Assembly: GCA_001798135.1 (NCBI GenBank)
Contig: MGRJ01000031.1
Location: 57,589 to 121,588 of the forward strand
Direction of reading: 5' to 3'
From: Deltaproteobacteria bacterium RIFCSPHIGHO2_02_FULL_40_28
GTDB lineage: Bacteria; UBA10199; 2-12-FULL-40-28
DNA: 64,000 nucleotides
Every line of letters starts with the position of its first letter. The first letter of the stretch is position 1. A model generated the notes under the pieces. It had not been told where the DNA came from. It saw only the letters and a program-made list of their open reading frames with translations, and ran no database searches. The translations under genes were made by a program, and so were the position numbers. Shown piece by piece: positions 34,142-59,949 of the stretch.

Positions 34142-34408
34142 CCCAAAACCCTCTCATGCCCCCTAAAAAATTCTCTAAAAAATTTAAAAGTTCTGTCATT
34201 CTGAATCCGCCAAAGGCGGATGAAGAATCTCAATGCAATCAATGAGATCCTTCGTCGCCCTTTTCAGGGCTCCTCAGGATGACATTTTAAAAAATTACGC
34301 CTAAAAAACTTCTGCATTGAAGTTATCGGCAGAAAAAAAGGAAAGTTGTGGGAATTAAAAAAACATGATGCGGTGTGTTAAATGTGTGGGGGCGGGGTCA
34401 TCCCGCCC

Positions 34409-35275
34409 CTACATTATTAATTTCATTAAACTTAACACCTGCAAATCAACCTCGTATTTTCCTTGATGATGCAAAGCCAAACCCAAAAGATGATCTTGGC
34501 TTGGACGTAAAATTTGAAATTGAAATTCATCTGATTTGTAAGGAGGGGTTTTGGGGGATTTTTCCCAAATTTCTGGATTTAAGCGAACAGTAATATCACC
34601 ATTTGGTTTCAACGAAAAAACAGCATGAGCAAAAGTATAAAGCACAGGAATACCTGAAGCTTTGGTAAGAGATTCTTTGAGAACAGCGTACTGATAAAAA
34701 CGAAACATGCGATCTTCCCCTTTGCGGGATTCTACATCTTTTACTTCCTCCTCGGGCCCACCCACCATGGCCAAGCGACCCTCATCAACACGGGGTTCTT
34801 TGAGATATTCTACGTCAATGCCATGGGACACATCACCTAGGGAACAAACAACCATTTTTTTGGTGTGACTCAGGCTAACAATAGAAGATGGATCCCCGCC
34901 TTCGCGGGAATGACGAATATGTTTTTCATCCCCATCCGTAGGGGCAAACCCATGTGTTTGCCCGTTTAATGGGGTGACACATGGGTCACCCCCTACATTT
35001 AAGAGAGAAGTGTCATCCCCGCGAAGGCGGGGATCCATCTTCATTCTTGGACGCTTTCCTTCTTCCATTTCCAAATCCGGTGAAATTTTGACGCGCGCTA
35101 GGGCATGAGAGGCAAGGTATTGAGCACGAAATCCAGGATGAGTTGCTTCGTCAAAACGTTTTTGTTCAGAGGGAATTAAAGCTTCGTACAAAAACTTTTT
35201 TTCTTTTTCAGAAAAATGGTCAATGGATTCAGGAATGGGAAGCGACCAGATGGTAATTTTTTTGGTTTCATTCAT
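34409..35275 (-). CDS. Sfp/AcpT-type 4'-phosphopantetheinyl transferase with an in-frame repeat-derived insertion
   Basis: PPTase motifs HGIDVEY (G-x-D) and VLKESLTKASG (W/F-x-x-KE-S/A-x-x-K). The segment MKMDPRLRGDDTSLLNVGGDPCVTPLNGQTHGFAPTDGDEKHIRHSREGGDPSS is encoded by REP-A and family C elements at 34888-35040. Confidence 0.7.
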   Translation of the reverse strand: MNETKKITIWSLPIPESIDHFSEKEKKFLYEALIPSEQKRFDEATHPGFRAQYLASHALARVKISPDLEMEEGKRPRMKMDPRLRGDDTSLLNVGGDPCVTPLNGQTHGFAPTDGDEKHIRHSREGGDPSSIVSLSHTKKMVVCSLGDVSHGIDVEYLKEPRVDEGRLAMVGGPEEEVKDVESRKGEDRMFRFYQYAVLKESLTKASGIPVLYTFAHAVFSLKPNGDITVRLNPEIWEKSPKTPPYKSDEFQFQILRPSQDHLLGLALHHQGKYEVDLQVLSLMKLIM

Positions 35276-35407
35276 GTTGAATATTTTTTTGGACGGGTTT
35301 GGAACCCGCCCCTACACCAACAACATCTGCTAAGCCGACTAATTGTCCTGCAGATGGATCCCCGCCGGAGTTTACCCTCACGAAGGTGGGGGCGGGGATG
35401 ACAAAAA

Positions 35408-38400
35408 TTATCCCGCGGCCTTTAAGGCTGCTGCAACCACTGGAGATGCACTTCCTCGTCTCATGGCACCTGCTCGTGTTGCCATTGCTTCCATACGAGC
35501 ACTAGGACCGGCATGTTCTATCACACCTACATCTTCTAGCACTTGATCGACAGCACTTGCAGGGTCTTCGGCATCCAAGGCCATAGCTAATTGCTGCCAA
35601 TGAATATTTTCTAAACCAAGCCCTTCCATTTCATCACGGCCATAACCATGTTCTTCCAAACGAGCAAGAAGGGTTGCGCGATCCATCTCTCCAGTAGGGG
35701 CGTGATTTATCACGCCCTGTTCAGAGGGCGCAATAAATTGCGCCCCTACATGAGAGACACCTTGAACCAAGCCACTACGCAAACCAGCAACATCTGCTAA
35801 GCTAACAAGTTCTCCAGTTGCTCTAGCCGCTACTTCTCCAGGTGCAGATGGAGAACCTGGATCGCCACGTCGCTCTTCGGGCTCCTCGCGATGACCAGGG
35901 CTCGGGCCATCTCCACCATCAGGGCCACTATCTCTTCCGGGCTCTGGAGGAGGTGGAGCTTCGCGTCCATGGATTAAACGTTCAAACGTACTCTCTAATT
36001 CTTCACCCACACGTACTGTCCCCACATTTTGTGAAGCCAAGAAAATACCACCTTGCCTTCGCGTAGCATCATTAGCAGACTGGGCATTGGCAAAGGCATT
36101 AGTGACAGCTGTTCTCATCAAAGGCTTTGCAATGGCCTCTGTTAAAGTTTTATCTTTAATTTTCTCACGATAGAATTTTAATTGAGTGTCTAATTTTAAA
36201 GCTCCTGGAGTATCCATTAAACGAAGTTTGCGGCCTTCGGCATCTTCAATCACACGAACAGCTACGGAACTACCTAAAGATGGATCCCCGCCTTCGCGGG
36301 GATGACTGAGGGTAAGGGGATCACTCAGAATAGTTTTTCCACCATACTGACTTTCTTTTGAATAAAGAATGGCATCATCCAAGGCTACACCGCTAGCGCC
36401 CCAATGAAATGCGCCTTTTACATCTTCGTGGGTGGTATAGGCACCCGAAGCAATGACTGGAATTTTTGCATCATACAAAGCTTCACGAGCTTTTCGAACA
36501 ATCAGTTCGGGATCGGCATTCATGTCGCGATTTTGTTCAACGGCTTGAAGAATTTTATTAAAATTATGCCCCAAAGCTTTTTTAACAAAAGCAAAGGTGG
36601 CTCTAATTTCTGGATCCTCGGGATGGGCACGCAAGTTTTCGATAGCTCGCGCCAATACGTTTTGAGCTGCCTTCATTTGAGGAACATAACGAGCCGTTAA
36701 AACACCAATGGCCTGTCCGTCTTCACCAAAGAAGGTAACTTTCATGCGCATATCACTCGTTAAGCCATCCCACTCTGGAACCTCAGCCACTAAGGTAATT
36801 GCTTCATTGGCTTCCGGTGCACGCAAAGGAGTGTACAAATTATCTGCAGTGAATCCCCAAATTTTAAAAGCCATCATGCCTGTCCAGCCTGTTAATTCAT
36901 CAGCAGCCAGCATCATGGAATGATAACGGCTTTGACCTTCAATGGGTGTTACCCTTCCCCAAAGAGCTTTTTTTCCATCATCATAATTAAATCTAAAATG
37001 TAAGCCCGTGCCATGCTCATGCCCGGCTGCTACACAATTAGGTAAACATCCAAATTGAGCATTACTTGCAAGTTCGGCTGGATTAATTGTGCTGGCTTTA
37101 TCTTTGCTTTTAACTTTGGAAGCATCTTGGAAAGTAGCATTGGAAAGAGTTTTTTCTTCACGAGTGGCAGGCTTACCTCCTTCGGCTGGCTTATCAACAA
37201 GCTCCATCATTCTCATTTCAATGCGACCATCTGGTTTTTTCTCTACATAAATTCGAACATTGGCATTGGAAGGCGCATTCGCAATATAGCCCACGTTTCG
37301 ATGCAATTTATTAATATCAACTCTTTCGCCACCCTTCACCATGGCTTCTAAAACAGATTCAAAAATGGAATCAAGCATGCCTCCATGGGTGATACCCGTG
37401 TATCCCGCATAAGTTTCTGGAAGTTTAAAATCGACTTCGGATTTATTGGAGTAAAGTCTAAAAGAAGGAAAATCCGTTGTTTTGAATTGTAAATTAATGG
37501 GGCGAAGGGGCACAGTAGGCATCACATCCCACCTAGGATCTCTTAAGTCAGATAAATCACCAAATTTATTTTCTCCGGCCTGGTTTATATTTCCAGAAGA
37601 AATACTTCTCTCAACCACCACAGCATCAAACTTAGCCTTGGTAGTTTTTTGATTAGGTTTACCTTCGTGTTCAACCACCTTCATTTCAGTGAGTTTAATA
37701 ACCTCGGCTGCTGTATCCACCGTTTGAAAAACAGCAATGCCTACTTTATTTAAAGCAATGACTTGTTCTGTCTTAGGCAATCCCCCTCTAAACATCACGC
37801 CGCGCACTTGCTTTTCTGCAACCACTTTAAGTTGGGCTTCAAAGTTAGAGGCAGAAACATCTAAACTCACCACAAGAGGCGCTGTATTACCTACAGCGGC
37901 ATACACAGCATCAATTCTGGCCTCTAGGGTATCAGGGACCCCATTAACACCATTACCACCTTCAGTTGCTGCTTTTCTTGCAGCTCTTTCTCGTAAAACT
38001 TTTTCTGCTGCTGTTTCAGTGGCTTTTAAATTTCCTGCATCCAGGGTTCCAATGCCACCGGCATCAATAACAGCAATGGCCAAACTAGGTGTATTGACCT
38101 CTGGTGAAAAGCCACGTTGAAGCACAGGATAAGAAACACCCTTAAAGGCCTCGGGCATGGGCAACTGGGCTATCCCCTCTGCGTCATGTTTAATGCCTCT
38201 CTCTAAGGTTCTTTTTTCTTTGATGTCACCAATATGCTCAAAAGTATATTTGAGATAATCACCAGGTAAAATATCCGTCAGTAAAAGGGCCGTGTCTTCA
38301 CGAGACATTTTGCCTTCAAACTCCCTGATATCTTTACCGTTGGCCACCCAGGCTGCTTTTTCAGCTCCTAGTCTTGCTTCTAAACGAGCTTGAACTTCTT

Positions 38401-41400
38401 GAATTCTTCTGGCCACCTCGGGATAAACAGACACTTCGTGCTTATCTACAAAAACATAAATATTTTGATCATAGAGACCCCTTTCAAACTCACCTTTTAG
38501 AGCTCCCAAGAGAGCACGCACAGAAAGTTCATTCATAGATACAAATTTTGTTACCGCAGGATCAACTCCTGGTAAGACAAGAGCTCCACTTTGAATATCT
38601 TCAAAAATGCGTTTTTCAATCAAGCCCGCCAAGGTTCCACCAGGAATTGCATGTAATGCAAAAGATAAAAAAGCAGGAAAACTTAAAACACGACGTAAAC
38701 CTGTTTTAGGATCAGAAAGCCTGGGGCTTGCCAATTCTTTTTTGGTGGTCATCTTGGCGCGACCCAGAGAACCCTTGGTTTCCCAGGTAGCCCCGCCGTA
38801 CACTCCACCCAACATTCCATCCGATTCAGAACCACGCCAATCAAACCAAAAAGTTTCTGAAGCTCCAAAATGTTTGCCCCTGGCTCCTTTTAACCAACCT
38901 TGTTCATTGAATAAATCAAGCAAACGGGGATGGCTTCTGCCCATGGGAATAATGGTTGCTATTTCTTCTTCTTTTTCAGAGGCAAAATTAGGAATTTTTT
39001 TCATTTCTAATTCGCCATAGGAATTCATGCTAGGAACAGAAAGTTCGGGCTGGTAATGCGCCCTAGCAGGCAAGCCAAAGGCTACAGAGTCAAAGAAGTT
39101 TACCCCCGGGAGTAGATTTTGTTTAATCAAAGCATCAACAGTTAAACCTTTAATGTTATCCCATTGAAGCTCGGTGTCAAATTCTGTATTAACAGCGGCA
39201 AGCCAGCCCCTAGGGTCTGTAAATCCCAGTTCTTCTAACTTGGTTGTACCTTTCACCAGCACAGGGCGATTTAAAATACGAGAAGCTTTTCTAGTTAACC
39301 ATCCACGAATTTCAGCAACGGTAGGCTCAAAAGCTTTTCCAACAGCTTCAACCACTTCTTTGGGAAGAGGAGTTGGAGTACCGGTTGCTGCCGGGTGGCC
39401 CACATCAAAGGGTACGGCATTTACATTAAGCAATTGTAAGTTAACTCCATGAGTCTCCGCCAAGGCCTTCAAAACAGCAGGATTAAAGGCAGAAGCTTTT
39501 TCAACAAGTTCTTCGGGTTTAGCGGGATCAACGGGATTTGGATCACGATGCACACCCACTACTTCTTTAACCGCTCCTGATTTAATCAGCGCGATTAAGG
39601 TGCGCATACCCATGCCATCAGACATGCCGTAAAACACCATGGGACGACGATGCCAGTTTTTTTGACGAGCCAGGTGGCCCATTTCGTTTACTTCTCTTTG
39701 TCCAATGGAGTCATAAATTTCTTTTACACGGGCTTGGGCCTCGGCATATTTAATGGCATTGTGCTGAGAGCGAATAATTTCTGCATTGGCGCGTTTGTTA
39801 GTGGCGCTAGCTTGATCTGCTGTAACTTCCAAGCGTTTTACCTTCTTGTTTTCGAAATCAACCGTATACACTCTGGGGTTTACAAAATTATTCTGGGCTA
39901 AATCGGTATCCACTTCCAGCTCTACACCCTCATTTAAGGGGAATTGGTAAACCCAACTTTCGATATTGTTCCAATCCAGTTTTCTGCCTTCCAAAACAAG
40001 TGCACGAGCAATGGCATGGGAACGCAAGGTTACTTCATATTGATCACGATAGAGAGAAACGGGGGTTTCTTGATAAGTAGCCCGATTAAAAAACATTTTA
40101 CGCAAGCCCTGACGTTCGGCTCTTTTTTGAACTCTTTCTTTCGCTACTCCCTCAATGAGTTTAGCCACATAATCCACTGCAGATTCTTCGGTCTCAAAAC
40201 CCAGTTTTCCCATCACTTCAATGATGGCTGTATTTTTAGCATTAAAACCAGCAGCCTCACGAAGCACCACCCATGTTACATCGTCATCGTAGAGATCCCT
40301 TAAATTCTCGGCATGCTTATGGTGGTAAACAGTCACATTTTCTCCACCCTGTGCATGAATATTATCCAAACCAGGATCACCCGGAATACCCAAGAAACGC
40401 ATCACAAGTGGAGATAAAGCTGAATCGGAACCGGAAGAACCACCCAAGAGATGTCCCATATGGGCCTTGGTTTTAACAATGTGGGCAAACTGGGTGGGAT
40501 CTAAAATGGAAGAAAGGAAAAGACGTATGGATTCTTCCTCGTATAAATCTCCCATGGGCGTAGAAGTCTTGTGCGCCATTACAACCAGGCGTACATTTTC
40601 TTTAAGCTTACGGGTATTATCCACAAGAAAATCCACCAAATTTTTTCCCGTACGACCTTCTCCAACAGCTTTATTCCATTCTTCTTCAGTCAGTTTGGGG
40701 CCAAAACGTTCGACTAACTTATTGTAGAGAGCTTTTTGTTCGGTAAGTTTTAAACCCCACGTACTGATGGCTGTATCGGCATTAAATTCTGCTTTTGCAC
40801 GCCCTGCAGCACGCTTCCCCCTTTGAACTGCAACCATTAATTCTTGTACAATACCCGTCATTTCCTCTGGGGTATGCAACACTTCAGTTAATTTTTCTTT
40901 GGCTTGATCCCAGGCATCAAAAAGAGCCGAGCGTTGACCAATACCGTAACCTTCTCTGGCTCCCTTGTAGGCTTGTTTATCTCCATCGGTGCGGCTTTCT
41001 GCCCCTGCAATCATGGAGTAAACAGGATCTCCTGTTTTGATGGCATTAGAAAGTGGGGTAATCCCCTGACCACCACCACCCGCACCCAACACAAAACCAA
41101 AGCGTTCCATATCATCGGGACGGGAAGCCATTTTAATGGCAATATCGCGACCACGACGAACAGAATCTCTTATTGTGGCTCCAATGGCATCAAAACCAAA
41201 AATGGCGTTGAAGGTAATGGCGTAATCAACTCCACCGGCAATCCAAATTTTTGCAAAAACTTCATCCCAGTTAACATCCATTCCACTTTCTTCTCTGCGT
41301 GTTGCAGCCCAATACTCACTAAACAAATGTTTCACAGCCATCACAATGTTCATGTTTCCTGTAGAACAAGCAGCTACAACGGCTAGCGCCATCCCTTCAG

Positions 41401-44400
41401 CACCTAATTGTTCGGTAGCTACCTGACCTGTTGTTGAATCGGGAAGAAGAGCTGCCATTAAGTAGTTGGCCACGCTATCTTCTATTTGCATGGGTTTTAA
41501 GGTCATTTCATTGAAAGGCTCTAAGTCACCCAAGCCTGTACCAATGCCGACAAAAACATTTTTAGGACCAAAAACTTCATCCAACTCTTTAGGAGAGCGC
41601 CCTGCAGCCGACATCAAAATTTGGGATGTAAACATCTTGGCCATAAAGGAAGCTTTGGCCCCAGTACGAAGCTCGCTAGCGGGCACACCCATGCCTTCCC
41701 AGTCAAAACTGGTTTGACCCGGAAGATCGCCCGCAATGGTTTTAGGCAATTGAATTGTAAATTTCATGAAGTAGGTTTGGCCACCCTTGGCTAAAGCATA
41801 CAGAGAGCCATCAGGACGCCTATGAATAGCCAAACCAGCATTTTCTAGTTTTGTACGAGTAGCTGCAGGTAAATTAATTCCCTTAGCAGTATTTTCAATT
41901 TCGATTTCCTTGTCATTATCTCCAAAAGCAACTTGGCGAAGCACTTCAAATTCTTTGAAGCGACCAACTTCCTGAATACCACTATTGGCCAAAAGATGCG
42001 CTTCAACAGCATTTTGCCATGTTTTAAATTTTTCCAAAACAGCATCATCTAAACCAATGGAAGCGGCTAGTTTTTTATAATCTCCCCACTGGGAAACATC
42101 CACACCCATGGCCTTGGCCAAATTGTAAAAATCATAATTACCAAGCCAGCTATAACCCTCGTGCCCTTTAAATAAACCAGCCGCCAACATATTACGATAG
42201 TTGGCTAGGGCATCTGTTCCCAAGGGACCAACCATGCCATACCCACGCACCACAGGAGTTTCATCTTCAAAAAGGATATCGGTTTTAGGCTTGTAAGCAT
42301 AGCGACTGCTTGTTTCTCCCTTAATGGCAATGTTGATGTTATTGAGATCAACAATGGTTCCATCTAAGGGAATAAGGCTGGGATCTACTGCTGCTTTCTT
42401 TTCTTCTGCTTTTCTAGCTTTAGCTTCGGTATGTTTTATATCTTCTGTTTCTTTAACGCGCGCTTCTATCTCACCAAATTTTCCTGTTCTTAAGGCAGAC
42501 GTAAAACCATAGGTATCATCATATTCCCAAAGACCTTGAACCCGCTTGCGGGTATCTCCCTCTGGGGGTCTCAATTTACGTTTCCCAAATTTAGCAGCCA
42601 GCGCCCCCGATAAACCAACTGTTGACAGCTCATCACCTGTAAGGGTTTTAATTTTAATTCCTTCTGCTAGTGATTCAGTTTCTAGAGGTTGCGAATAATA
42701 ATCTTTGCCCGACATTAAAGTTTCTGATCTGCCATCTGATTTTCCCCAACCCGTTGTTCTAGCTACTTCCACTAAAATGGGCTTTTCTTCTTCGTCTCTA
42801 ATCCCATTGGCATAGGCCTCTGCTGCGGTTTGACCTGGAGGCAGAGCATTTTTAGTTAAGTGATAACTTTTGGAACCTGGTAGGGCCGCAGGATTTAATT
42901 CTCCCTCAAGCTCACCCAAGTTTGCTGCATTATTGGGAGTGTAGAGATTAACAAAAACAACTTTCTCCCCTGTTTTGTATTTTTGATGGAGTTTAGCCAG
43001 ACTAATGGCCATCCAACGCGTAGAAAGAGCCATCACCAAAAGAGAATCGAGTGGAGTACCACGATCGGCTAGAGAGCCATAGTCTTCACGTCCAGCTCCA
43101 TTGATGTAGAGAGTAGGGAGATGAGGCATTTGAGGTTCTACTTCTAATTCACCCTTTCTGTATTTTTCTTTATCTTCCTTGTATTGTTTTAAGTCTGCAA
43201 CATACTTCATTTCGATGTAATAAAGCAGGGCATCTTCATCAAAGCGGTTTCCGGGTTGCATATTGGGCACCACATCCATACTGGCTCCATCCGCTGCCTC
43301 GCTGTAAATATCGTAGTAAAGATCGCTGGCTACTCTGCCTTTGCGCTCGGCACTTCGGCCAGCATAATCTGTCATCATCACGTTACCACCCAATTGCATC
43401 CACTTGGAGGCATAGCCGGCTGTGATGGTTGAAGCTTGATGAATTAAGGCCACATGCCCACGCAAATCGTAACCATCCTCAAGTAAAAACTGGAGATCTT
43501 TCCCTGTTTTTTTATCGGCCATGGTGGGATCGGCTAATCTTTTCGCAGCTTCGATAGTGCCATCAGTATCTGGAACAAATTGTGATTTTTTAGCACCTCC
43601 ATAGGTGGGAACATGATTACCCGAAACGATATCGATCACCTTCCCGGTATAAATAATTCCCTCATCCAAACGATGTGCAGCTAATGTGTAGAGATGTTCC
43701 AAGGTATCAATACGTCCTTGGCGACGGGCCTTTTCTGCTGTATCCGCAGTTGCATCCCGTTTTTTGGTTTCGGCATTGATGAAACCACGCAACCAACCCA
43801 AGCGAATACTATCGATTCCATTTGCAATTTGACGCATTTCTCTTTCTTCTTGGTCCAAAAGACTTGCACGTAATGCGTCAGAAGCATCTTCGGGCATACG
43901 GGTTTCAAAAGCAGCGCTTCGCACATAACCCACAAAACGCATGAGGCGGGCTATGCCTCCATTTTGGGTTACATGATTAAAACCATACACACCCATGCCA
44001 GCACGCACGGAAGTTAAAACACCTGTCACATCTTCGGCCGTCATATCCCCGCGTAAAATTTTACGAGGATCAATGGTTTCTGTTCCCCCCTCGGTACCTC
44101 GGTAGTAAATACTATCGGCATAATGGGGTTGCATGAGGCTATCCATAAAGAAGTCGGAGGTGGAAACACGAACAGCCCCTAAACGACGTTCTGCTTCGGC
44201 TAAACGAGAAGCTTGTTCTGAATCATAAGTTGTGGGTGCGCCTTTAGCATCAAGACCCACACGGGTATCTGTGGCTTCTACTCCTCTAGCTGAAGGGGTT
44301 GCTAAAACAGCAACAGCTGCACCTCGAGCCCCTGTTGCACCTGGCGAAGCTGGTGGTGGAGAATCTCCAGCAGCCGCAGGGGCGCTGCTCGCTGCGCCCA

Positions 44401-51139: not shown

Positions 51140-51427
51140 GGACCCAATTTAAAGCAATACCCCCTCGCTGCTTCACAGCAAGGCCTTCCAGACAAAACTC
51201 GAAAGATGAATAGTGATTCCTCTGCCCCAGGTGGACGGGAATGATGATTACTGACTTAAGACCCCAACACTCTAAAAACTGAATGGACGTTCAGCGTCCT
51301 TAGCGTAGCTGAAAATTCATTTCAAGAAAAAAATCAAATCTTTATCTGCCTCTTACAACCAAAGGTTGCTTCCTTTTTTTCCGTCATCCCTGCCTCTTTT
51401 GTCATCCCTGCGAAGGCAGGGATCCAT

Positions 51428-54400
51428 CTATATCTTCGCCTTAACCCAAGTCATTTCACCACGGCGTCGGGCTAATTGATACACATTAGCACCCCTTGCC
51501 CCATTTGTAGGGGCAGGTTCTAAACCTGCCCGGGCGGGTTCAAGCTCTTCTGCAATCACTGCTAAAGCTTCCATATTTTCGGCTTGGACAGCTGCTCTTA
51601 AAGCAAGTTCCATCTCTGCTGGGATAATATCCATTTCTGCGAATTCAGCTCCTAAATCAGCATCTACAGCAGCTATTACCTCTGCCAAGGGGGTTTGATC
51701 CATCTCAGTAGGAATGGCTAAATCGTGGAAACCAAGGGTGTCTAAAAGCTCGCGAGCGGTTTGAACAACCCACTCAGTATAAATCCCTCGGGTTGCCGCT
51801 CGGGATGCCCTTTCCTCAGGAGTTTCCAAGAATACTAATCTGGGAGCTAAACTAAGAGCGTTCGCTCCACTTACAGCGGATAAACCACCTAAAACTTCTC
51901 CACCTATTGCCAATCCTAATGGAGAATCCGTAGGGGCAGGTTCTAAACCTGCCCCCGAATCATGGACGGGTTGGGAACCCGCCCCTACACGATCTGTGGG
52001 TTCAACCCCTCGGCTCCCCCCTTGCTCTCTGGTAGGGACTTGCCCTTCTGCTGGCAGGCCACCACCAGAACCAGGAGAAGGTCTCTCTGGAGGTGTTACT
52101 CCATTGGCAAGCCCCGCCTTGACATAAATAGGTCCACGCTGGGATTTAGCTACTTCACCAAATCCACTACTTCCATTACGATACAGAACCGTATTACCTT
52201 CAAAAATTTCTGGCGTCTTTTCATAAGCAACTACAATGTGGGTTACTTGGGGAAATGCTGCTCTCACCCTCTCAAAAATATTCTGTTGAGTAAAAAATGG
52301 AATTCCGATGGGTTTGTTAATTCCCTTACTTTGACTCGGGGTTTTTACTTGTGAAAAACGAATAATTTTTCCGTCATCATGAACGCTAATACGAACATGT
52401 CTGGTTGAAGAAAAAACATAGGCACCGTTAACCTGTTCTTTTTCAACCCAACCTAACGCTTGTGCTACTGTTACAGGGGTTACAAGAGTAACTGGGGCGA
52501 CGCGTGGGTCGCCCCCTACATCAGGAGCAAGGGTAGTTACGGTAGGGGCAAACCCCTGTGTTTGCCCTTCTGTTGGTGGATCTCCTGGAGGAGGATCACC
52601 TGCTGGAGCACTCGAAGCAGGGCCGCCAGAAGGTGGGGTTCTCACCAAGGCCAATAAACCTTCTGCTAAACTTTCAGCTCCCATAACTGCTGATAAACGC
52701 CCACGCATTGGTTTTGGCAACATTTCTAAAAGCCCACGAGCACGTTCCATCAAAGTTACTGCTTGTCCAAACTTGGCCTCGTTAATTTTTTCTGCTAAGA
52801 AAGCTGTATTTTTTTGAATCCAATTTTCTACAAAGGCATTATCGGCCCATAATTCATCGTTGGTTCGACCTGGATTGCCACGCGTCGCCATGTCTTCATT
52901 AAACCAACCACGAATTTTTTCTCTCGCTTCTACAGGAGTGAGATTAAATTCTCCCGTATCTCCATCACGCCCAGAGGCCTGCAGAAGAGCTTTTCTTAAT
53001 TGATCAAAGGCCACACTTCTGGCCAACCATTGATGTCCTTCAGATCTAAAATCTTTCCAATCTACAATGCGGTTGATCACTCCTTTTGTAAGCATGCGTT
53101 CGGGCACATCATGGGCATCAGCAAATTGAGTGGCAATAGATCGATAAACAGGAAGAAGTATTTTTTCCCTGGCGGCAATTTGTTCTTTAAATCCTGTAGT
53201 TTGTCCACTATCAGCAGGCACCCTGGCAAGTTGAGATTCTAGCTCAATGATGGCATCATCACATTCTCTCATCTTGGCTTTTAAAAACTCATCATCTTTT
53301 CCCCAAATTTTAAGTCTGGCAGTAGCTCCTGCTTCCAAAACATTTCCACGAGAAGTAGATTCTGCCCAAAAGGTTGCTTGATCTTGATGATTAATGGTTG
53401 GATCAACCACCACCCAGGCTCCACCCCGCAGCTCTCCAAAGGGAGGCAGCATAATCATTACAGGAGCATCGTACTGACGCAATTCATCCACAATAAAAGA
53501 ACCATACTTCAAAATATGGTCGAACATGTTATCGACACCGCCCGAAAATCCTCTCCAGTTGGGAAGCACCACTAAAGGTAAACCTTCGCGCCTGGCATCC
53601 CCCATAAATTCAGCTGTTTTCCAAGCCGAATCAGACCACCACACCTTGCCTGCTTGATCCACACGCCTTTCAGAAGAAGCTCTCATGGCTGCATCAGCAG
53701 GAATAACTTTTTGTGTCGACCGTAATTCGGGTGTCAGCACAGCAACAGGAATACCTCCCCATCGAGCCCGACCCGTCACCACACTTTTAGCCCATTCCCC
53801 CATGTCTTCCTTAAAAGATCCCTCATCTAAAAAGCCCGGGGCATACTCTCCTTCAAAAGCAATGGTACCCTCTTTGGCAACAGGAGTTGGACCACCACGA
53901 ATTAAAAAGCGGGGATCATAAACCATTGCGGGGTCAAGAGGTTTCCAAAGGTTGGTGCGGTTTACTGGATCTGTGTTCTTTACAATGAGAAGTTCGCCGC
54001 CTTTTACTTTTGGAATAAAAGAAATCCAATCCAAAAAGGTTTTCATTCCAGCAATATCATCTTCTACCACAGTGCGAGTATTTCCATTGGCCGCATGAAT
54101 ATTCACTCCACCAAATTCCTGGTTATCGGTGTAATACTCATCTCCCATCAACTCATTCATCATGTCTTTACCAGTAAGCATCATGGCCGTGCCCCGTTTT
54201 TGAATGACACGACGATTTAAACGGCTAATATACGCCCCAATACCCACGTTTAGCCCCATTACGTAAGTGAAGGTAAGGCCTTCATCATAGGCCTTAGAGG
54301 CTTCTCCCGCAATGGTTCCAGAGCCTCTTAGATTTTCAACTCCAATACCATCGGGGCCATCTTTAATACCGGTAATTTTCCAACGAGTTTCACCTTCTAC

Positions 54401-57400
54401 AGTAATTTGTTCTGCTAAAATTTCTTCTGCAAATTTTGGATATTGTTCTTCAGTAAGATAAACATACCCTCCCTGAGCGGGATTGCTAGAATCATTCAAA
54501 GCATATTTTTTTGCTTTCTTTAATTCTTCAAAAACTCCAATGCGGGCTCCTGAATTAGCAGCAACATAAAGGAAAGGAAGTCCTGATTTTCTGGCATACT
54601 CGGAAGCCTTTTGATATACTTCATCTTCGGCCTCAGAAAAAGAACCATAATCGATATTAAAATCGTTGGTGGCAATAATGATGTCACGCCCCTCAGGAAA
54701 TTCAGGAGTACAAAGCGTTACCTTAAAGGCCACCATGCCTACAGTGTTTTGTCCTGCAGGTCGGCTTGTAGAAACCAAATTGCCATGTCTATCAACCACC
54801 ATTTCGACAGCAGAGACTACAGTAGAAGGATCGGCTGTTTCTATGAGTTTGGGAATATCATAAGCATAGGTTTGTCCCCTGCTTTGAGCAAACAAACGGC
54901 GTTTATCAATTTTATCCAAGGGAGTGTAGGGAGTATCCCGATCTTTTCCACCCAGATCATGGGCACCAAAAGTTAGAGCCCTGTAAGTAATTTGACCAGT
55001 GGTCCCATTGGTTACTTCCTCATAGCCATGAACTTCTAATTTATGCCCCGAAGGATTACTGGCTACAAAAAGATATGGCTTGGGCGCAGGATTACCATCT
55101 TTTAATAAAAGTTTTACCTCTACCATCCCCACCCGCAATTCTTTTAAACGTCCCAGATTGCGTTCGTAGATGGTTTGAATAACATGGGCTACATTGGTGG
55201 TTTCTAAATCGATGGGGTCTGATACATTCAAAAAAACTTGGTTAAAAGTTGTTTTGTCATAGGGAGAGCCTTTTCTTAAAGTCATCTCCATGGCATCCAA
55301 ACTTTCTGAAAAAGCCTCTTCAACTCGAGGAATAAAAATTACTTGTTCCGCCCCAATCCCATTGCGCCGGACCTTAGCTCCCCGAACAACATGTCTCACA
55401 AAAAAGCGGGAATCACGGTCTTTATCTTTGATGGGTTTTTGATCAACAGCGCGACCCCAAATGGGATCTCCTTCTCCACTCCTTATATTCACCACCTTCT
55501 CACGACCATAGTAGAGATGAATTTGGTGGTTAGGCACGGGCAGGGCCTGCACATCAAACCAACTCATCCGATTGGGAGTTAAAGTATAGGCCAGGGCTGG
55601 CTCCATGTGACGTACGATAACATCTTCCTTCCAACTCAAATCTTTGCGGAAAGTATAAAAAGCAGGATAGACCCCTGGTTTATTAATAATAAAACTCATC
55701 CGATTGATATTATAAGATTCAAATTTATTTTTCTGAGCATCAACTATCTTTTGCAAAGCAGCAAGAATAGCCTTTTCATCTCCTTGAGGAGCCTCTTTTA
55801 AAACCAAGTTGAGGGTTCTCTCTGTTCCTGAAGGAACCCCTACAAAACTTTCCAAAACCATATTCCAGTTTCTCTCAAGCTGTTCTTGATTTTGAAAAAC
55901 CATCATGGATCCAGAGCGAGCATCTCTACCTCTCACAGCACGTGCAGAACGATAATTCCATACCACCGCTTGGGTTTCACCACCCCCCACTAGAGGATAT
56001 CCATGGGTTTCAATTCTTGAAAATTCATGACCCCGATAAGCTCTTTTTACATAAACTTGCAAAGCAGTATCAATAACAGCCGGATCGGTATCAAACAAAT
56101 GGGGAACAACCAGCTGAAATAAAGATCGATGTTCTCCAACAAGAGCTGCTATGAGTCCATCTCGAAGTTCAGGGCGAGATCTATTGATTTCTAAAATACG
56201 GCTTCTCACTTGTCTAATTCCTTCCTCTATACCCACCTGACGATTTCTTAAAATGGCTTGGGCTGCCTTGTGAGCCAAGGGATCAAAGGCTTTGCCTCGA
56301 AGTGATTTAACCCCTACCAAACTCCCTGTTAAATCGCCTACCAGCCCTTTTTGAGACACTTGCTCCATTAAAGCTGCAATAAAAATATTTCTTTTTAAAA
56401 CAGGCTTGTCTTTTTTACTCTTGGCCTCGGCATCCTCCCACATGTAAATTTCATTGTGAGCTTGGGAATAAGCATGCACATCAATAGTTTTTTCTCGTTT
56501 TAATTCAACGGTGGCGCGATAATAAGTTTTCCCTTGGAAAGCTTGTTCTACTTTTGTAAATTCAGCAAATAAACCTCTAATCACTCGATTTCGGTTTCCA
56601 GCAATGCCCTCTTTGTAATTTTCAGCTAATTCTTGGAAAGGTTTTGCTGCCATTTTAAAAGCTTCTTGTTTGGCCTTTAAAATTTCAGCTTGTTTTTCCT
56701 CACGCTCAGCTTCTTTTAAGTCTCCCCTTTCAATTAAGGATTGCACTTCTCTAGCAGAGTCCCTTGCCAATTGATCTCCTGCTTCATATCGTGCAATTAT
56801 TTGAAGAATGTCTGCAGAAGGGAAAGCTGGTGGAGGAGAAGCAGCTAAACCAGCAGCATAGGCATCTACCAAGCTTCTTAATTGTTCACGAACAGTTCTG
56901 GGAAGGCTGCCCTGATAAACTGAATAAAAATAATTAAATTGCTCGATGGGAAGCCTTGGATTTTCAAGGGCAGTAAAAAGTTGGTTTATAACCAAACTTG
57001 CAAGATTTTCCATACCACTGTCTGGTCCAAAACCTCCAAGGATTTGCCTGGCCTGATTATAAGCCCATTCGTACTGGCTTCTTAAACTCTCTCCCACTTT
57101 TAAGGGGGATGCCATTGCACGCAATTGATCAGCAAAAAGCACCGCCTTTTTCACTTTATCGGGTTCCTTTAAATCTATGTTGGCTAAAAGGTCTCCGGCT
57201 ACAACTCCTGTGTTGGGAGCTATGGTGTACGAAAGTATTCCATCTTCCAAGGCCACCATTTGACTTACTGCTTTCATGGCCTCATATTCAATAATGGGCA
57301 TTCCTTTTTTAACTTCCGATCCATTAGGAACCAAGTAACGAATAAATTTTCCGGGAGCTTCTGCTAAAATTTTGGAAGGATCATATTCGTTGGGGAAAAA

Positions 57401-59803
57401 TACTGTTTTCCAACCCACATCCAGTTGCAATCCACTGGGAAGCGCACGACCAGAAACCAATTGGTATTTTCCATCAACACCAATCATATAATCTCTGCCC
57501 GCCTCCGGTCCTACTTGCAACACATGGGCTTCTACTGCTCTTCCATTGAGATTCAAAGAATAGCGACCATCACCTAAGTAATTTACCTTAAAGCTATACT
57601 TGGTATCTTCTGTCTCCCTATTAATCACATCAACAGCAAAGCTGGTATCTAAAAGCCTGGCAAAGGGGACATGGCCCCTGTTAGATTCGGCCTGATATTC
57701 CTTTTGTCGGCCCAATAAAGTTTCGTGAGCTTTAAAGGCTGCAGCTAAAACAATGCTCAAATCTTTTTCGGGCTGGTTTACCAAACCACCACTCTCTACC
57801 AATTCATCTAGTTTGGTAGTCGTAGCTTCTGTTGATGAATTTTTTCGAAAAGTATCAGACTCTAAGTATTGCAAAATGGCTGCTGCAGGAGTTCTAAATT
57901 GGGGAACTCGAAGCATTTGAAGAGCCACGGCCATTTTATTAATGGCGTCATCTCTATTTTCACCATGGGCAAAAATATGCATGAATTGCGAATCGGCAAA
58001 TTCGTGAATTCCTCCTGGAGCTGCAAAAGAAGTATAGCCCCAAACACCGGGCATATTTCTAAAAGTGATCTCATGGGCACTTCCAGGAGAGGCCCTCCAA
58101 CCACGGTCGGGATCTCGTGCAGTAATACGAACAGCAATCACATGCCCACGCGGTGGAAGAGGTTCTTTGGTATCAAAATCAATGAGGGTATGTCCCCAGG
58201 GATCTTCTCCATACAGTCTTCGAATATCAGGAATACGATGAAGACTGGCCCCCATCTCAACATGCAATTGCGCCACAGGAAGATTTACTCCTGTAATCAT
58301 TTCACTTACAGGATGCTCTACTTGTAAACGAGGATTTACTTCTAAAAAGAAAGCTTCGTTGTCTACGGTGCTATATAAATTTTCAATGGTGCCTGCATTT
58401 TGGTAGCCCACCATTTTCATGGCAGCCACAGCAGATCGACGCATTTTTAAACGTTCATCTTCATGCAATCCAATAGGTGGACCTTCTTCAATTACTTTTT
58501 GAAAGTCTTTTTGAGTAGAACAATCTCGTTCGTACAAAACAATGGCCTGCCCATGCTTATCGGCCAAGCCTTGCAGCTCGATGTGCCGGGCATTGGGAAT
58601 AAAAGCCATGATTAACACAGGGCCCGCTACTTCGGCTTGAGTTTGCGTAAAAAGTTTTCGGATTTCCTCGTCGAGTGTTGCTGGATCTTCAATTAATTTT
58701 TCAAGCTTACGAATTCCCTTTCCTCCTCCTCCAAACACAGCTTTAAACATAAAGGGAACTTGAATATTTTTTTCACGAATAACGCGCACGGCATCATCAG
58801 CAGTAGTAACCGTTGAGAGGGCATAAATTTCAGGGGGAATATTGGTTACATCCTCAATGCGACCTTCTAAACCAAATCCACTCCAAGGAGCAATACGCAT
58901 GCCGGCCTTGCCGCCAACCAATAAGGCAGAAGCCTTGTCTCCAAAGGCATTCATGGCGCATGCTCGGGGACCAATAAAGCCAATTCCAAGTTCATCTAAA
59001 CGCGTAGGTAATGCTGGATTTTCAGAAGCAAAGCCCCAACCAGGCCACACAGCATCAACTCCATGGGTATGGGCTAAATCTACAATCAAATCGACATTAG
59101 AAAAATTATTAGCGGGACCTCCATCGGGTACTAAAGCAATTTCACAGCCCAGGGTTGCTGCTAAACGAATAAACTCGGCATTGGCTTTTAAATCCTGGGC
59201 TGTCACCATGATGACAAACTTGATTTCATCAGGGTGCCCAAAGGTTTCGTAAGACCATTGCCAGATAGAACGAATAAACTTGGCAGCAGCCATGCCTGAG
59301 TTTGCAATTAAAATTTTGCTTATGGGTTTTTCTGCACCAATAAAACTTGAATATTCATCAATGGAATTAAAACGACGGGAAGGGCTAATACTAACCACTC
59401 TTGGAATCGGAAACAAATTTGCAGGTACTACAAATATCCCTTCTTGGCTAAGTGCAGCTTGAGGCATAGACCACTTGGGAAATGCTAGATCCAAGGAAGA
59501 TAAATCACTGGGAATGGCAAGAGGAAAAACAACAACATCAGTATCAACAACAGTAATGCCATGTAAGTAAGCCTCTAAGGCTTGTTTCGCTGCTGCTCTT
59601 GGACCTTCTTCACCAGAAGTTCCGGCAAGAATAGTACCTAATTTTCTGATAATATCGGCAGGGGCAACCCAGTCTGTTGGATTACCTAATCCAAGGCTCT
59701 CACTTGCAGGGGCAAGAGCCACTTCAAGAGAGATTACTTCTCCTGAAACTTCTCCTGCAATGATTCTTCTCCAAGTTGCACTATCCGCCATAACATCCCT
59801 CAA
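51428..59803 (-). CDS. Single-chain multidomain acetyl-CoA carboxylase, eukaryote-type: biotin carboxylase, BCCP, central domain, carboxyltransferase, with extra N- and C-terminal extensions
   Basis: BC motifs (KILIANSGMAAAKFIRS, EVNPRLQVEHPVSE). Biotinyl-lysine motif IEYEAMKAV (Lys codon at about 57272). CT beta/alpha motifs (DIIIATNDFNIDYGSFSEAEDE; GG..VVVDP). 2791 aa. SD GAGGGA precedes the ATG at 59803. Confidence 0.85.
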   Translation of the reverse strand: MRDVMADSATWRRIIAGEVSGEVISLEVALAPASESLGLGNPTDWVAPADIIRKLGTILAGTSGEEGPRAAAKQALEAYLHGITVVDTDVVVFPLAIPSDLSSLDLAFPKWSMPQAALSQEGIFVVPANLFPIPRVVSISPSRRFNSIDEYSSFIGAEKPISKILIANSGMAAAKFIRSIWQWSYETFGHPDEIKFVIMVTAQDLKANAEFIRLAATLGCEIALVPDGGPANNFSNVDLIVDLAHTHGVDAVWPGWGFASENPALPTRLDELGIGFIGPRACAMNAFGDKASALLVGGKAGMRIAPWSGFGLEGRIEDVTNIPPEIYALSTVTTADDAVRVIREKNIQVPFMFKAVFGGGGKGIRKLEKLIEDPATLDEEIRKLFTQTQAEVAGPVLIMAFIPNARHIELQGLADKHGQAIVLYERDCSTQKDFQKVIEEGPPIGLHEDERLKMRRSAVAAMKMVGYQNAGTIENLYSTVDNEAFFLEVNPRLQVEHPVSEMITGVNLPVAQLHVEMGASLHRIPDIRRLYGEDPWGHTLIDFDTKEPLPPRGHVIAVRITARDPDRGWRASPGSAHEITFRNMPGVWGYTSFAAPGGIHEFADSQFMHIFAHGENRDDAINKMAVALQMLRVPQFRTPAAAILQYLESDTFRKNSSTEATTTKLDELVESGGLVNQPEKDLSIVLAAAFKAHETLLGRQKEYQAESNRGHVPFARLLDTSFAVDVINRETEDTKYSFKVNYLGDGRYSLNLNGRAVEAHVLQVGPEAGRDYMIGVDGKYQLVSGRALPSGLQLDVGWKTVFFPNEYDPSKILAEAPGKFIRYLVPNGSEVKKGMPIIEYEAMKAVSQMVALEDGILSYTIAPNTGVVAGDLLANIDLKEPDKVKKAVLFADQLRAMASPLKVGESLRSQYEWAYNQARQILGGFGPDSGMENLASLVINQLFTALENPRLPIEQFNYFYSVYQGSLPRTVREQLRSLVDAYAAGLAASPPPAFPSADILQIIARYEAGDQLARDSAREVQSLIERGDLKEAEREEKQAEILKAKQEAFKMAAKPFQELAENYKEGIAGNRNRVIRGLFAEFTKVEQAFQGKTYYRATVELKREKTIDVHAYSQAHNEIYMWEDAEAKSKKDKPVLKRNIFIAALMEQVSQKGLVGDLTGSLVGVKSLRGKAFDPLAHKAAQAILRNRQVGIEEGIRQVRSRILEINRSRPELRDGLIAALVGEHRSLFQLVVPHLFDTDPAVIDTALQVYVKRAYRGHEFSRIETHGYPLVGGGETQAVVWNYRSARAVRGRDARSGSMMVFQNQEQLERNWNMVLESFVGVPSGTERTLNLVLKEAPQGDEKAILAALQKIVDAQKNKFESYNINRMSFIINKPGVYPAFYTFRKDLSWKEDVIVRHMEPALAYTLTPNRMSWFDVQALPVPNHQIHLYYGREKVVNIRSGEGDPIWGRAVDQKPIKDKDRDSRFFVRHVVRGAKVRRNGIGAEQVIFIPRVEEAFSESLDAMEMTLRKGSPYDKTTFNQVFLNVSDPIDLETTNVAHVIQTIYERNLGRLKELRVGMVEVKLLLKDGNPAPKPYLFVASNPSGHKLEVHGYEEVTNGTTGQITYRALTFGAHDLGGKDRDTPYTPLDKIDKRRLFAQSRGQTYAYDIPKLIETADPSTVVSAVEMVVDRHGNLVSTSRPAGQNTVGMVAFKVTLCTPEFPEGRDIIIATNDFNIDYGSFSEAEDEVYQKASEYARKSGLPFLYVAANSGARIGVFEELKKAKKYALNDSSNPAQGGYVYLTEEQYPKFAEEILAEQITVEGETRWKITGIKDGPDGIGVENLRGSGTIAGEASKAYDEGLTFTYVMGLNVGIGAYISRLNRRVIQKRGTAMMLTGKDMMNELMGDEYYTDNQEFGGVNIHAANGNTRTVVEDDIAGMKTFLDWISFIPKVKGGELLIVKNTDPVNRTNLWKPLDPAMVYDPRFLIRGGPTPVAKEGTIAFEGEYAPGFLDEGSFKEDMGEWAKSVVTGRARWGGIPVAVLTPELRSTQKVIPADAAMRASSERRVDQAGKVWWSDSAWKTAEFMGDARREGLPLVVLPNWRGFSGGVDNMFDHILKYGSFIVDELRQYDAPVMIMLPPFGELRGGAWVVVDPTINHQDQATFWAESTSRGNVLEAGATARLKIWGKDDEFLKAKMRECDDAIIELESQLARVPADSGQTTGFKEQIAAREKILLPVYRSIATQFADAHDVPERMLTKGVINRIVDWKDFRSEGHQWLARSVAFDQLRKALLQASGRDGDTGEFNLTPVEAREKIRGWFNEDMATRGNPGRTNDELWADNAFVENWIQKNTAFLAEKINEAKFGQAVTLMERARGLLEMLPKPMRGRLSAVMGAESLAEGLLALVRTPPSGGPASSAPAGDPPPGDPPTEGQTQGFAPTVTTLAPDVGGDPRVAPVTLVTPVTVAQALGWVEKEQVNGAYVFSSTRHVRISVHDDGKIIRFSQVKTPSQSKGINKPIGIPFFTQQNIFERVRAAFPQVTHIVVAYEKTPEIFEGNTVLYRNGSSGFGEVAKSQRGPIYVKAGLANGVTPPERPSPGSGGGLPAEGQVPTREQGGSRGVEPTDRVGAGSQPVHDSGAGLEPAPTDSPLGLAIGGEVLGGLSAVSGANALSLAPRLVFLETPEERASRAATRGIYTEWVVQTARELLDTLGFHDLAIPTEMDQTPLAEVIAAVDADLGAEFAEMDIIPAEMELALRAAVQAENMEALAVIAEELEPARAGLEPAPTNGARGANVYQLARRRGEMTWVKAKI

Positions 59804-59949
59804 ACAAAAAAAAGGGAGGTTACAACCTCCCCTTTGATCTTAAGGCCGTTAACAAAAATAATACTTTCTTGTCAACAAAATCCTCCATAATCGTTGATTT
59901 TTTTGACGTTTTATTCTTCTGAAGGCATTCTTGACTTTAGACCGAGGGC

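Follow-up and report, generated by a model that had tools for sequence, protein, structure and literature searches.

The textbook view confines type I fatty acid synthases (FAS) of the fungal kind to fungi and to those actinobacteria that make mycolic acids (review PMC9260719). Whether the class reaches further into bacteria is the question raised by a stretch of 64,000 nucleotides (nt), hereafter the window, from Deltaproteobacteria bacterium RIFCSPHIGHO2_02_FULL_40_28 (contig MGRJ01000031.1, positions 57,589 to 121,588). Calling of open reading frames (ORFs) found three consecutive genes on its minus strand, at the positions where the original prediction, made from the letters of the window, had put them:

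34409-35275, minus strand: Sfp-type (group II) 4'-phosphopantetheinyl transferase (PPTase), 288 amino acids (aa), with SLSHT, GIDVE at 152 and LKESLTK at 199
35408-51139, minus strand: type I FAS-like megasynthase, 5243 aa
51428-59803, minus strand: single-chain acetyl-CoA carboxylase (ACC), 2791 aa, TTG start

Open frames of 15.7 kb and 8.4 kb at about 43% GC cannot have originated by chance. The likelier start of the ACC is ATG 59791 (2787 aa), with the ribosome-binding site GAGGGA read from the sequence, and that of the megasynthase is ATG 51124 (Met6; 5238 aa), with the ribosome-binding site GGAGAAAG; the 5238-aa call is also the one in the JGI/ENA records. We consider it likely, judging from the comparisons given below, that the locus is a self-contained module leading from malonyl-CoA to an acyl chain, whose core is a hitherto undescribed branch of the microbial type I FAS, the class of fungi and of the Corynebacterium-Mycobacterium-Nocardia (CMN) group.

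Domain content and order of the megasynthase

The domains recognised are listed from the N-terminus, with the residues expected to act in catalysis.

49040-50422, minus strand: N-terminal acyltransferase (AT), aa ~240-700; GQG at 256, nucleophile Ser351 in GQSGG, His566
47210-48427, minus strand: FAS1-type multi-hot-dog dehydratase (DH), aa ~905-1310; hydratase-2 motif D1219-x4-H1224
45770-47176, minus strand: malonyl/palmitoyl-type transferase (MPT), aa ~1322-1790; GQGSQ at 1331, Ser1510 in GHSLG (1508), Arg1535, His1649
45104-45334, minus strand: first acyl carrier protein domain (ACP1), aa ~1936-2012; NCBIfam acyl_carrier; Thr1972, codon ACC, 45224-45226
44495-44725, minus strand: second acyl carrier protein domain (ACP2), aa ~2139-2215; Thr2175, codon ACA, 44615-44617
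42440-44242, minus strand: fungal-FAS-type ketoreductase (KR), aa ~2300-2900; Rossmann start ~2561, invariant Tyr2759/Lys2763
40040-41782, minus strand: ketosynthase (KS), aa ~3120-3700 (Pfam 3139-3581); Cys3258, His3523, His3563
38240-39667, minus strand: Rossmann-like domain after the KS (domain X), aa ~3825-4300; 'VFYGMSDGMGMRT'; candidate FabV/TER-like enoyl reductase
37580-38152, minus strand: NMO/FabK-fold flavin mononucleotide (FMN) TIM-barrel enoyl reductase (ER), N-terminal part, aa ~4330-4520; Pfam NMO at aa 4332-4516, E=1.5e-14, profile positions 7-169
36590-37462, minus strand: insert in the ER barrel, ~300-360 aa (aa ~4560-4850); two putative hot-dog-like modules, THGG at 4584, C-x3-C...GLHF at 4697
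36005-36517, minus strand: NMO-fold ER, C-terminal part, aa ~4875-5045; Pfam NMO, profile positions 185-232 (aa 4881-4931)

For the AT, a family profile (A5) matched FabD enzymes in the PDB (E=6e-7) and, in mycobacterial FAS-I, the N-terminal AT (4v8v, residues 47-173), and Ser351 and His566 are conserved in the family. The DH was recognised by Pfam as FAS1_DH_region (PF13452, aa 914-1013, E=7e-7), MFE-2_hydrat-2_N and MaoC (PF01575, aa 1210-1307, E=3e-11), and its active-site motif reads D1219-L-N-P-I-H1224. The MPT is matched by Pfam Acyl_transf_1 from residue 1328 and by NCBIfam fabD, with PDB matches that include the MPT region of fungal FAS beta, while the KR profile of the family (A3) matches the KR of fungal FAS alpha (4v58_A, 645-732, E=1.1e-5). 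The KS was found by Pfam and by NCBIfam fabF; against the PDB its family profile (A2) ranked the KS of mycobacterial FAS-I first (4v8v, 2606-2984, E=6e-23), followed by FabF (9e-20) and fungal alpha (1e-14), although the margin of mycobacterial FAS-I over FabF is small and these are profile scores, not a tree. The fungal-type KS of the original prediction is accordingly kept as a FAS-I-type KS, with mycobacterial and not fungal FAS-I as its closest match.

Taken along the chain, the order is AT-DH-MPT-ACP-ACP-KR-KS-X-ER (barrel with insert)-tail. A colinear DH-MPT-ACP-KR-KS core is thus present on one chain (by Pfam and NCBIfam, the KR being placed by profile), and a single copy of each activity required for an iterative, fully reducing cycle is carried. 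The NMO-fold ER sits C-terminal to the KS; between AT and DH there are only about 200 aa and no ER. Neither an integrated phosphopantetheinyl transferase (PPT) domain nor a methyltransferase, chain length factor (CLF) or further modules were found within the megasynthase by Pfam and NCBIfam. Four stretches had no Pfam match in single-sequence searches, some of which were annotated by family profiles. Pfam, NCBIfam and the family profiles against the PDB agree with the earlier view of the 15.7-kb frame as one with fungal/CMN-type FAS domains, and a placement of the megasynthase as a deep relative of the CMN/fungal ('microbial') type I FAS, outside the lineages of animal FAS and polyketide synthases (PKS) and of polyunsaturated fatty acid (PUFA) synthases, is supported.

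Comparison with known synthases

The CMN FAS-I enzymes (M. smegmatis 4v8v, M. tuberculosis 6gjc) share with the window protein a single polypeptide, an N-terminal AT, the DH-MPT-ACP-KR-KS succession and an NMO-fold ER, and among solved structures they are matched by the KS and the N-terminal AT of the window family, the KS matching best of all. Their PPTase is a separate neighbouring gene, as in the window, and CMN genomes carry a fas-acpS gene pair. In contrast, the ER of CMN FAS-I lies between AT and DH, whereas that of the window protein is C-terminal; the latter also has an extra Rossmann domain of about 480 aa after the KS, an insert of about 360 aa that interrupts the ER, a pair of ACPs where CMN FAS-I has a single one, both bearing Thr instead of Ser, and 5243 aa compared with about 3100 aa. 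Its PPTase, 132 nt downstream, is Sfp-type and not AcpS-type as in CMN bacteria, and its host is not an actinobacterium. The layout can be described as a CMN core whose ER has left its place between AT and DH for the C-terminus, with domain X added.

The same domain folds make up fungal FAS (alpha6beta6; AT-ER-DH-MPT / ACP-KR-KS-PPT), in which the alpha KR and the beta MPT are matched by the window family and Pfam FAS1_DH_region is likewise found, and ACP helix II of the window protein has a fungal-like 'x-N-E' pattern by direct reading. Differences from fungal FAS are the position of the ER, the lack of an integrated PPT, the single gene, and the lack of recognisable scaffolding or dimerisation modules. 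With the PUFA synthases (PfaA-D) and the AT-ER of trans-AT PKS the window has in common the tandem ACPs, an NMO/FabK-fold ER (PfaD-like) and an Sfp-type PPTase (PfaE-like); unlike a PUFA synthase, it has no KS-CLF pair and no FabA-type DH, its DH being of the MaoC/hydratase-2 FAS1 type, and its order is not KS-MAT-ACPn-KR. Animal FAS and iterative type I PKS (KS-AT-DH-ER-KR-ACP, with an MDR-fold ER) differ from it in domain order, in the fold of the ER and in the MaoC-type DH. The domain order and the MaoC-type DH set it apart from both groups, the NMO-fold ER from animal FAS and iterative type I PKS, and the single KS from PUFA synthases. It had also been proposed that size, domain order and ACP chemistry are without a described counterpart, and this stands as far as testable, in view of the C-terminal ER, the extra Rossmann domain, the Thr-bearing ACPs and the near-absence of the family from databases.

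Relatives, rarity and the role of the synthase

An exhaustive HMMER search with aa 900-2099 over 1.84 billion representative proteins returned four proteins below 1e-30 (P0001, P0002, P0003 and P0004) and the weaker relatives P0005-P0007, so that about 5-8 relatives were recovered from that set; canonical CMN/fungal-type proteins scored only 1e-11 to 1e-13 in the same single-sequence search. P0001 has 4533 aa and 36% identity over the matched DH-MPT-ACP query stretches, P0002 is a fragment of 1998 aa, and P0004 has 3958 aa. The window protein is colinear with P0001 over about 4300 residues; P0004 and P0007 can be aligned with it throughout the domains that they have in common. When 185,579 species-representative genomes were scanned with a pattern from the KS alignment, one locus was found, that of P0004 in an uncultured Pseudomonadota metagenome-assembled genome (MAG), and the JGI metagenome collection gave one further locus (L013). 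A single-sequence scan of the species genomes retrieved no relative, and a word-indexed search returned none with aa 2401-3713 and fragments only with the KS core. In the literature searched, no bacterial non-CMN FAS-I of this architecture is described; 'ancestral variants' of the family are alluded to in papers later than Bukhari et al. 2014 (Structure 22:1775), so partial prior knowledge of some of the relatives is possible.

The neighbours of the relatives' synthases are informative. In L010/L012 and L011 the synthase has a PPTase gene as its immediate neighbour; a large gene containing a carboxyltransferase (CT) domain lies directly upstream of the synthase in L009, with another on the L011 contig. 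Because a PPTase or a CT gene accompanies the synthase at three loci of relatives, the combination of carboxylase, megasynthase and PPTase appears recurrent, and this association fits an acyl synthase fed with malonyl-CoA.

The CT-containing giants (L009 3-4226, L011 1-2637) have highly divergent, apparently duplicated CT domains and no other Pfam match; they may represent another type of carboxylase or decarboxylase, as yet undescribed, that goes with this family of FAS. Three malic-enzyme genes are located directly downstream of the P0001 synthase (L009 19636-28186), which suggests a dedicated supply of NADPH by analogy with oleaginous eukaryotes. The C-terminal region varies within the family, with the ER barrel and the hot-dog region each present or absent.

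Such a distribution bears on what the enzyme is for. The same chemistry could serve a synthase of specialised ('secondary') lipids or reduced polyketides, the product being for example an unusual lipid of the long-chain, hydroxylated or storage kind, while the membrane fatty acids come from a type II FAS encoded elsewhere in the genome. The extreme patchiness of the family (about 5-8 in 1.84 billion proteins; one in 185,579 species genomes) is typical of accessory genes, the tailoring and release region at the C-terminus differs between members, the ACPs are in tandem as in PUFA synthases, and the neighbourhood is full of toxin-antitoxin genes and repeats. On the other hand, the reducing loop is complete, the KS is single and iterative, and no methyltransferase, CLF or extra modules are present; the dedicated ACC directly upstream and the malic enzymes beside a relative's synthase suggest bulk flux, primary FAS-I enzymes are its nearest relatives among known structures, and the genome is small (2.16 Mb). 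A specialised product seems to us unlikely, though it is the strongest competitor to a general FAS.

The acetyl-CoA carboxylase

Pfam recognised seven families in the ACC, in the order Biotin_carb_N, CPSase_L_D2, Biotin_carb_C, ACCA_BT, Biotin_lipoyl, ACC_central and Carboxyl_trans, which correspond to the following features, the C-terminal extension apart:

57833-59323, minus strand: biotin carboxylase (BC) domain, aa 161-657; Pfam PF00289/PF02786/PF02785
aa 681-783: ACCA_BT domain (Pfam)
57176-57358, minus strand: biotin carboxyl carrier protein (BCCP) domain, aa 816-876; Pfam Biotin_lipoyl; candidate biotinyl-Lys844 in E-A-M-K-A
54974-57172, minus strand: central (non-catalytic) domain, aa 878-1610; Pfam ACC_central E=7e-97
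53045-54703, minus strand: CT domain, aa 1701-2253; Pfam Carboxyl_trans E=2e-106
51431-52768, minus strand: C-terminal extension, ~445 aa; no counterpart in eukaryotic ACC, partly in-frame elements like repetitive extragenic palindromes (REP)

Against solved structures (phmmer, PDB) the protein scored 1217 bits with human ACC1 and 1148 bits with yeast ACC, with BC, central and CT domains all matched; the CT domains of ACC1/ACC2 in the PDB match at E~1e-169, and homology to PDB entries stops near aa 2331. By sequence, then, every domain of the homodimeric ACC of eukaryotes and actinobacteria is held on this chain, and the claim of a fusion as in eukaryotic ACC1 is borne out by the Pfam order and the score to human ACC1. 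As to catalytic residues, the absence of which would have spoken against an ACC, the BC motifs read intact (glycine-rich loop GGGGKG at about aa 358, EVNPRLQVEH at aa 488) and Lys844 of the BCCP is in place, while the CT is supported as a whole domain by Pfam (E=2e-106). The enzyme would supply malonyl-CoA.

Single-chain ACCs that include a central domain have a precedent in bacteria. SACE_4237 of Saccharopolyspora erythraea, which has been characterised, is such an enzyme with a central region, and it was put forward as the prototype of 'actinobacterial homodimeric ACCs' (PMC6491548); the novelty of the window ACC lies in its host lineage, its size and its adjacency to a type I FAS. The suggestion that the arrangement is not standard for bacteria consequently holds for an ACC next to a type I FAS and not for the ACC alone. 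Like eukaryotic ACC1 and ACCs of the SACE_4237 type, the window ACC has BC-BT-BCCP-central-CT all on a single chain, with end-to-end homology. It differs from them in its length (2791 aa, compared with about 200 kDa in actinobacteria and about 2200-2400 aa in eukaryotes), in its extensions of about 150 aa at the N-terminus and about 445 aa at the C-terminus (the latter partly REP-derived), in the biotin motif (AMKA, compared with VMKM), and in its setting, a 'deltaproteobacterial' MAG in which the next gene downstream encodes a type I FAS.

Integrity and setting of the locus

That a eukaryote-like ACC and FAS should stand together in a bacterial contig calls for consideration of an artefact, namely contaminating eukaryotic DNA, a transfer from a eukaryote in the very recent past, or a chimera formed at repeats during assembly. 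The best scores of the ACC among solved structures are indeed with animal and fungal ACCs, and many short repeats could in principle mislead assemblers. A word-indexed protein search with the ACC central domain nevertheless retrieved nothing but one nearly identical fragment, with 97% identity across the 14% of the query that could be aligned, and this lack of a close relative, eukaryotic ones included (shared 5-mers, word-indexed search), argues against recent transfer from a sequenced eukaryote; the synthase, moreover, is nearer to mycobacterial than to fungal FAS. The cluster is flanked on both sides by bacterial housekeeping genes (ftsY, hisG, purM/N, purA, serA, bolA, grxD), its GC is close to that of the flanks, and relatives are located on other bacterial contigs. 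Since the same REP families occur inside the cluster and elsewhere in the window and the flanks are bacterial, the cluster appears native to this genome.

Exact protein look-up placed the same window also on contig MGSL01000028.1 (GCA_001799145.1, 'Deltaproteobacteria bacterium RIFCSPLOWO2_12_FULL_40_28'), a MAG of 2.16 Mb, 39.3% GC and 33 scaffolds from the Rifle aquifer (Anantharaman et al. 2016 supplement). The same 5243/5238-aa megasynthase and the PPTase, labelled 'hypothetical protein', are found in four NCBI MAGs as well as in JGI and ENA contigs; a MEGAHIT contig equals the window over all 9868 nt compared, and the other database copies differ by 0-4 residues, so that the sequence is essentially invariant across samples. 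Because independent assemblies, made with different assemblers from different samples, give identical sequence, a chimera at the repeats, which had been named as a possible refutation, is very unlikely, and an artefact of any of these kinds is in our judgement scarcely credible. The population is essentially clonal.

The gaps between the genes are 288 nt (ACC-FAS) and 132 nt (FAS-PPTase), and REP-like hairpins occur in both. The larger gap is noted separately:

51140-51427, minus strand: ACC-FAS intergenic region; REP hairpin and a small terminator-like stem-loop at 51299-51285

In view of these hairpins and of the terminator-like stem-loop, 'operon' can be used here as an inference only; co-transcription of the ACC, FAS and PPTase genes is plausible. 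The upstream boundary of the cluster is the divergent bolA-grxD pair just 5' of the ACC gene. An Rfam search of 34-62 kb matched no family.

The 5' region of the ACC gene (59804-59950) contains a promoter-like TTGACA and then an 11-bp G+C-rich hairpin with a U-run (59835-59810) abutting the start codon, which could be a leader attenuator or merely another REP-like hairpin.

The phosphopantetheinyl transferase and the threonine carrier sites

All three group II motifs, (S/T)xSH(S/T), G(I/V)D(I/V)E and (W/L)xxKE(A/S)xxK, are found in the PPTase, which Pfam matches to ACPS at 152-237 (E=7e-6, just above the cut-off of that family) and NCBIfam, weakly, to the Sfp-type AusB, HetI and AcpT. The protein can be aligned with the PPTases found beside the synthases of L010 and L011; its aa 78-133 are a REP-derived insertion between conserved motifs that is absent from these orthologues. 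With the motifs, the Pfam match and the conserved neighbour in relatives all in agreement, an Sfp-type PPTase beside the synthase, as first proposed, is well founded.

Both ACPs read D-L-G-(Y/F)-D-T-N-K-I-N-E at the carrier site, compared with LGIDSNNIGEV in P0002, GIDSGEAG in P0001, GIDSNS in P0004 and GI(S/G)SKK in P0007 and L013. ACP1 and ACP2 are 55% identical, with dS ~1.2 and dN/dS of 0.24-0.31, and use different Thr codons; given these values and the differing codons, Thr seems to have been kept in both copies through long purifying selection, which speaks for Thr-bearing ACPs that work or are at any rate under constraint. A literature search for Thr-linked phosphopantetheine found none described.

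The region after the ketosynthase

Domain X is conserved in every family member. Its profile against the PDB gave trans-2-enoyl-CoA reductases (FabV/TER family) as best matches, at E=0.3 only, and no Pfam match was obtained, the Eno-Rase families included. In T. denticola TER, the top PDB match, the N-terminal, nucleotide-binding stretch 'G-x-S-x-G-x-G' and the stretch 'M-G...W...G-x-L...Y...G-x-A-K' are colinear with domain X; unlike FabV/TER, domain X is fused within a megasynthase, the match is non-significant, and the Y-K spacing of the window protein is altered, whereas P0001 shows the exact Y-x8-K spacing (motif as defined in PMC9260719). An AlphaFold2 model from a four-sequence alignment reached a pLDDT of 52 and resembled, by Foldseek against the PDB, only generic Rossmann-like folds (E>0.03); a model of aa 3700-4899 made without an alignment (pLDDT 34) was unusable. 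Domain X may be a FabV/TER-like second enoyl reductase, a weak assignment made more attractive because P0004, P0007 and L013 have no other ER candidate, and it is possibly the ancestral ER.

A window-specific insert of about 55 aa in domain X (~39100-39310, aa ~3945-4010), not present in P0001, P0004 or P0007, reads like a degenerate helix pair of a carrier protein (LEELGFTDPRGWLAAVNTEFDTEL), with Asp at the Ser position.

P0004, P0007 and L013 have, as their C-terminal domain, a homologue of the insert in the ER barrel; P0001 lacks it. PaaI-like 'HGG' and 'C..C....GL.F' patterns can be read in the insert; its profile had no match in the PDB, one relative matches Pfam 4HBT_3C at E=0.023 (a single weak match), and hhalign against E. 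coli PaaI gave a probability of <1%. With low confidence, the insert may be a hot-dog thioesterase that releases the product.

In-frame repeats

Several families of short palindromic elements resembling REP or miniature inverted-repeat transposable elements are spread across the window, many of them in-frame within coding sequence:

4260-4412: REP-like element in ftsY
34885-35041: REP-like element in the PPTase gene
36277-36316: REP-like element in the FAS gene, in-frame in the ER's C-terminal portion
44723-45370: REP-like elements in the FAS gene, comprising three in-frame copies in the ACP linkers at 44723-44761, 44948-44986 and 45332-45370 (minus strand; family D3; encoding TSPLPQG(G/E)GAGGG)
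51499-52576: REP-like elements in the ACC tail, with repeat copies at 51499-51531, 51959-51988 and 52542-52576
381-494, 5605-5727, 12555-12646, 28277-28387 and 60605-60750: intergenic REP-like copies

The peptides that they add to loops and linkers include SPLPQGGGAGGG, HPREGGDPS and GQT(H/Q)GFAPT. The elements resemble the Rickettsia palindromic elements.

Evidence for and against a working synthase

The data are best explained by a working type I FAS, iterative and fully reducing, that would constitute a third lineage of the microbial FAS-I class. In this proposal the dedicated single-chain ACC would feed the synthase with malonyl-CoA, the N-terminal AT (Ser351/His566) would load the starter and the MPT (Ser1510/Arg1535/His1649) the malonyl group, and the reducing cycle would be run by the KS (Cys-His-His), the KR (Tyr2759/Lys2763), the DH (Asp1219/His1224) and the FMN-type barrel ER. 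The Sfp-type PPTase would turn the ACPs into their holo form, necessarily on Thr1972 and Thr2175. The product might be released by the hot-dog insert acting as a thioesterase or, alternatively, by MPT transfer to CoA as in the CMN/fungal enzymes, and the three genes would be expressed jointly from a promoter region shared with the divergent bolA-grxD pair.

Several observations weigh against this proposal. One concerns the carriers, where Thr occupies the column of the phosphopantetheinylated Ser in a gap-free alignment to solved ACPs, while the relatives and the solved ACPs all have Ser. The AcpS of E. coli is not known to modify S36T ACP, so that a Thr acceptor would be new chemistry. The AT has Gln and not His before its nucleophilic Ser, though this is typical of the family, and the glycine-rich loop of the KR is degenerate in the window protein (HQASTITAG, compared with GAGAIG in P0004). 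Peptides that stem from REP elements have been inserted into the barrel of the ER, the PPTase and the tail of the ACC. Two of the functional assignments, those of domain X as FabV-like (E=0.3, fold search negative) and of the barrel insert as a thioesterase (E=0.023 in one member, hhalign negative), are weak. A terminator-like hairpin lies between the ACC and FAS genes, and promoter and terminator scans of the cluster performed no better than on shuffled sequence. Finally, the CT-containing giants of L009 and L011 were considered as orthologues of the window ACC and rejected on comparison.

Some of these points would be expected of a decaying or inactive relic, in which the change from Ser to Thr killed the carriers and REP elements invaded the coding sequence, with stop codons yet to come: Thr is found at both ACP sites, REP insertions have entered the PPTase, the ER and the ACC tail, and the KR loop is degenerate. 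Yet about 24 kb of reading frame are still uninterrupted, all other catalytic residues are intact, and every REP insertion is in-frame and in a linker or loop. The two ACP copies, at dS ~1.2 and dN/dS 0.24-0.31, both hold Thr by different codons, and the sequence is near-invariant across samples. Loss of function is in our estimation a very improbable account of the locus.

A functional synthase remains the preferred interpretation, and a more far-reaching form of it can be put forward tentatively, as a proposal that we would not yet favour over its contrary. In this form the PPTase would activate Thr1972 and Thr2175, so that an O-phosphopantetheinyl-threonine carrier would be seen in nature for the first time, and the megasynthase would be a working deep sister of CMN/fungal FAS with an alternative, possibly older, C-terminal ER of the short-chain dehydrogenase/reductase type, the FMN barrel having come later.

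Other features of the window

Besides the housekeeping genes already named, the window encodes a peptidyl-prolyl isomerase, nirB and an aminotransferase. Toxin-antitoxin pairs (BrnT/BrnA, ParE/Phd) are located between 24 and 30.4 kb. A 193-aa ORF at 60758-61339 (minus strand), about 1 kb upstream of the ACC gene, contains two ExxH motifs (DETRH, EETNH), like di-iron carboxylate oxygenases and desaturases, and had no Pfam match even at E=5. Two paralogous AAA_14/DUF4143 ATPase genes are present (1595-2722, minus strand; 26301-27443, plus strand), and a third copy is found next to the L009 synthase locus.

At 14432-18590 (minus strand) two large Asp/Gly-rich secreted proteins of 777 aa and 599 aa are encoded. 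Internal 66-nt tandem repeats in the former read as thrombospondin-type-3/FG-GAP-like calcium-binding repeats; the latter has no Pfam match. A common C-terminal targeting or docking domain of the ACC, the FAS and the downstream proteins was sought by BLAST and rejected, since only low-complexity matches were obtained.

A 44-nt motif (GAAGTTATCGGCAGAAAAAAAGAAAAGTTGTGGGAA...) is repeated at 18618-18661, 29794-29837, 30414-30457 and 34319-34362. Three of the four copies lie upstream of minus-strand genes (599, 390 and 1228 aa), and the copy at 30414 is at the 3' end of the 1228-aa gene. The motif may be a shared promoter or operator, and its presence upstream of the 1228-aa gene, which is downstream of the PPTase gene, suggests that this gene has a regulation of its own.

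Implications

In-frame REP insertions in such large enzymes provide a natural map of permissive loops, and a compact three-gene lipogenic cassette, with a eukaryote-style ACC and a type I FAS in a genome of 2.2 Mb, is of interest for engineering. Phosphopantetheine on Thr becomes a directly testable question with a defined pair of ACP and PPTase; if the Thr is modified, the carrier-site Thr could be categorically new. The locus also bears on the origin of the eight-domain order of FAS-I and of its giant barrel. It would represent a third FAS-I lineage, outside the Actinobacteria, in which the AT...DH-MPT-ACP-KR-KS backbone has been kept and the reductase placed differently, and the variants of the family (Rossmann domain only; Rossmann domain and barrel; barrel with hot-dog insert) resemble successive stages in the gain and displacement of domains, against which models of FAS-I evolution can be tested.

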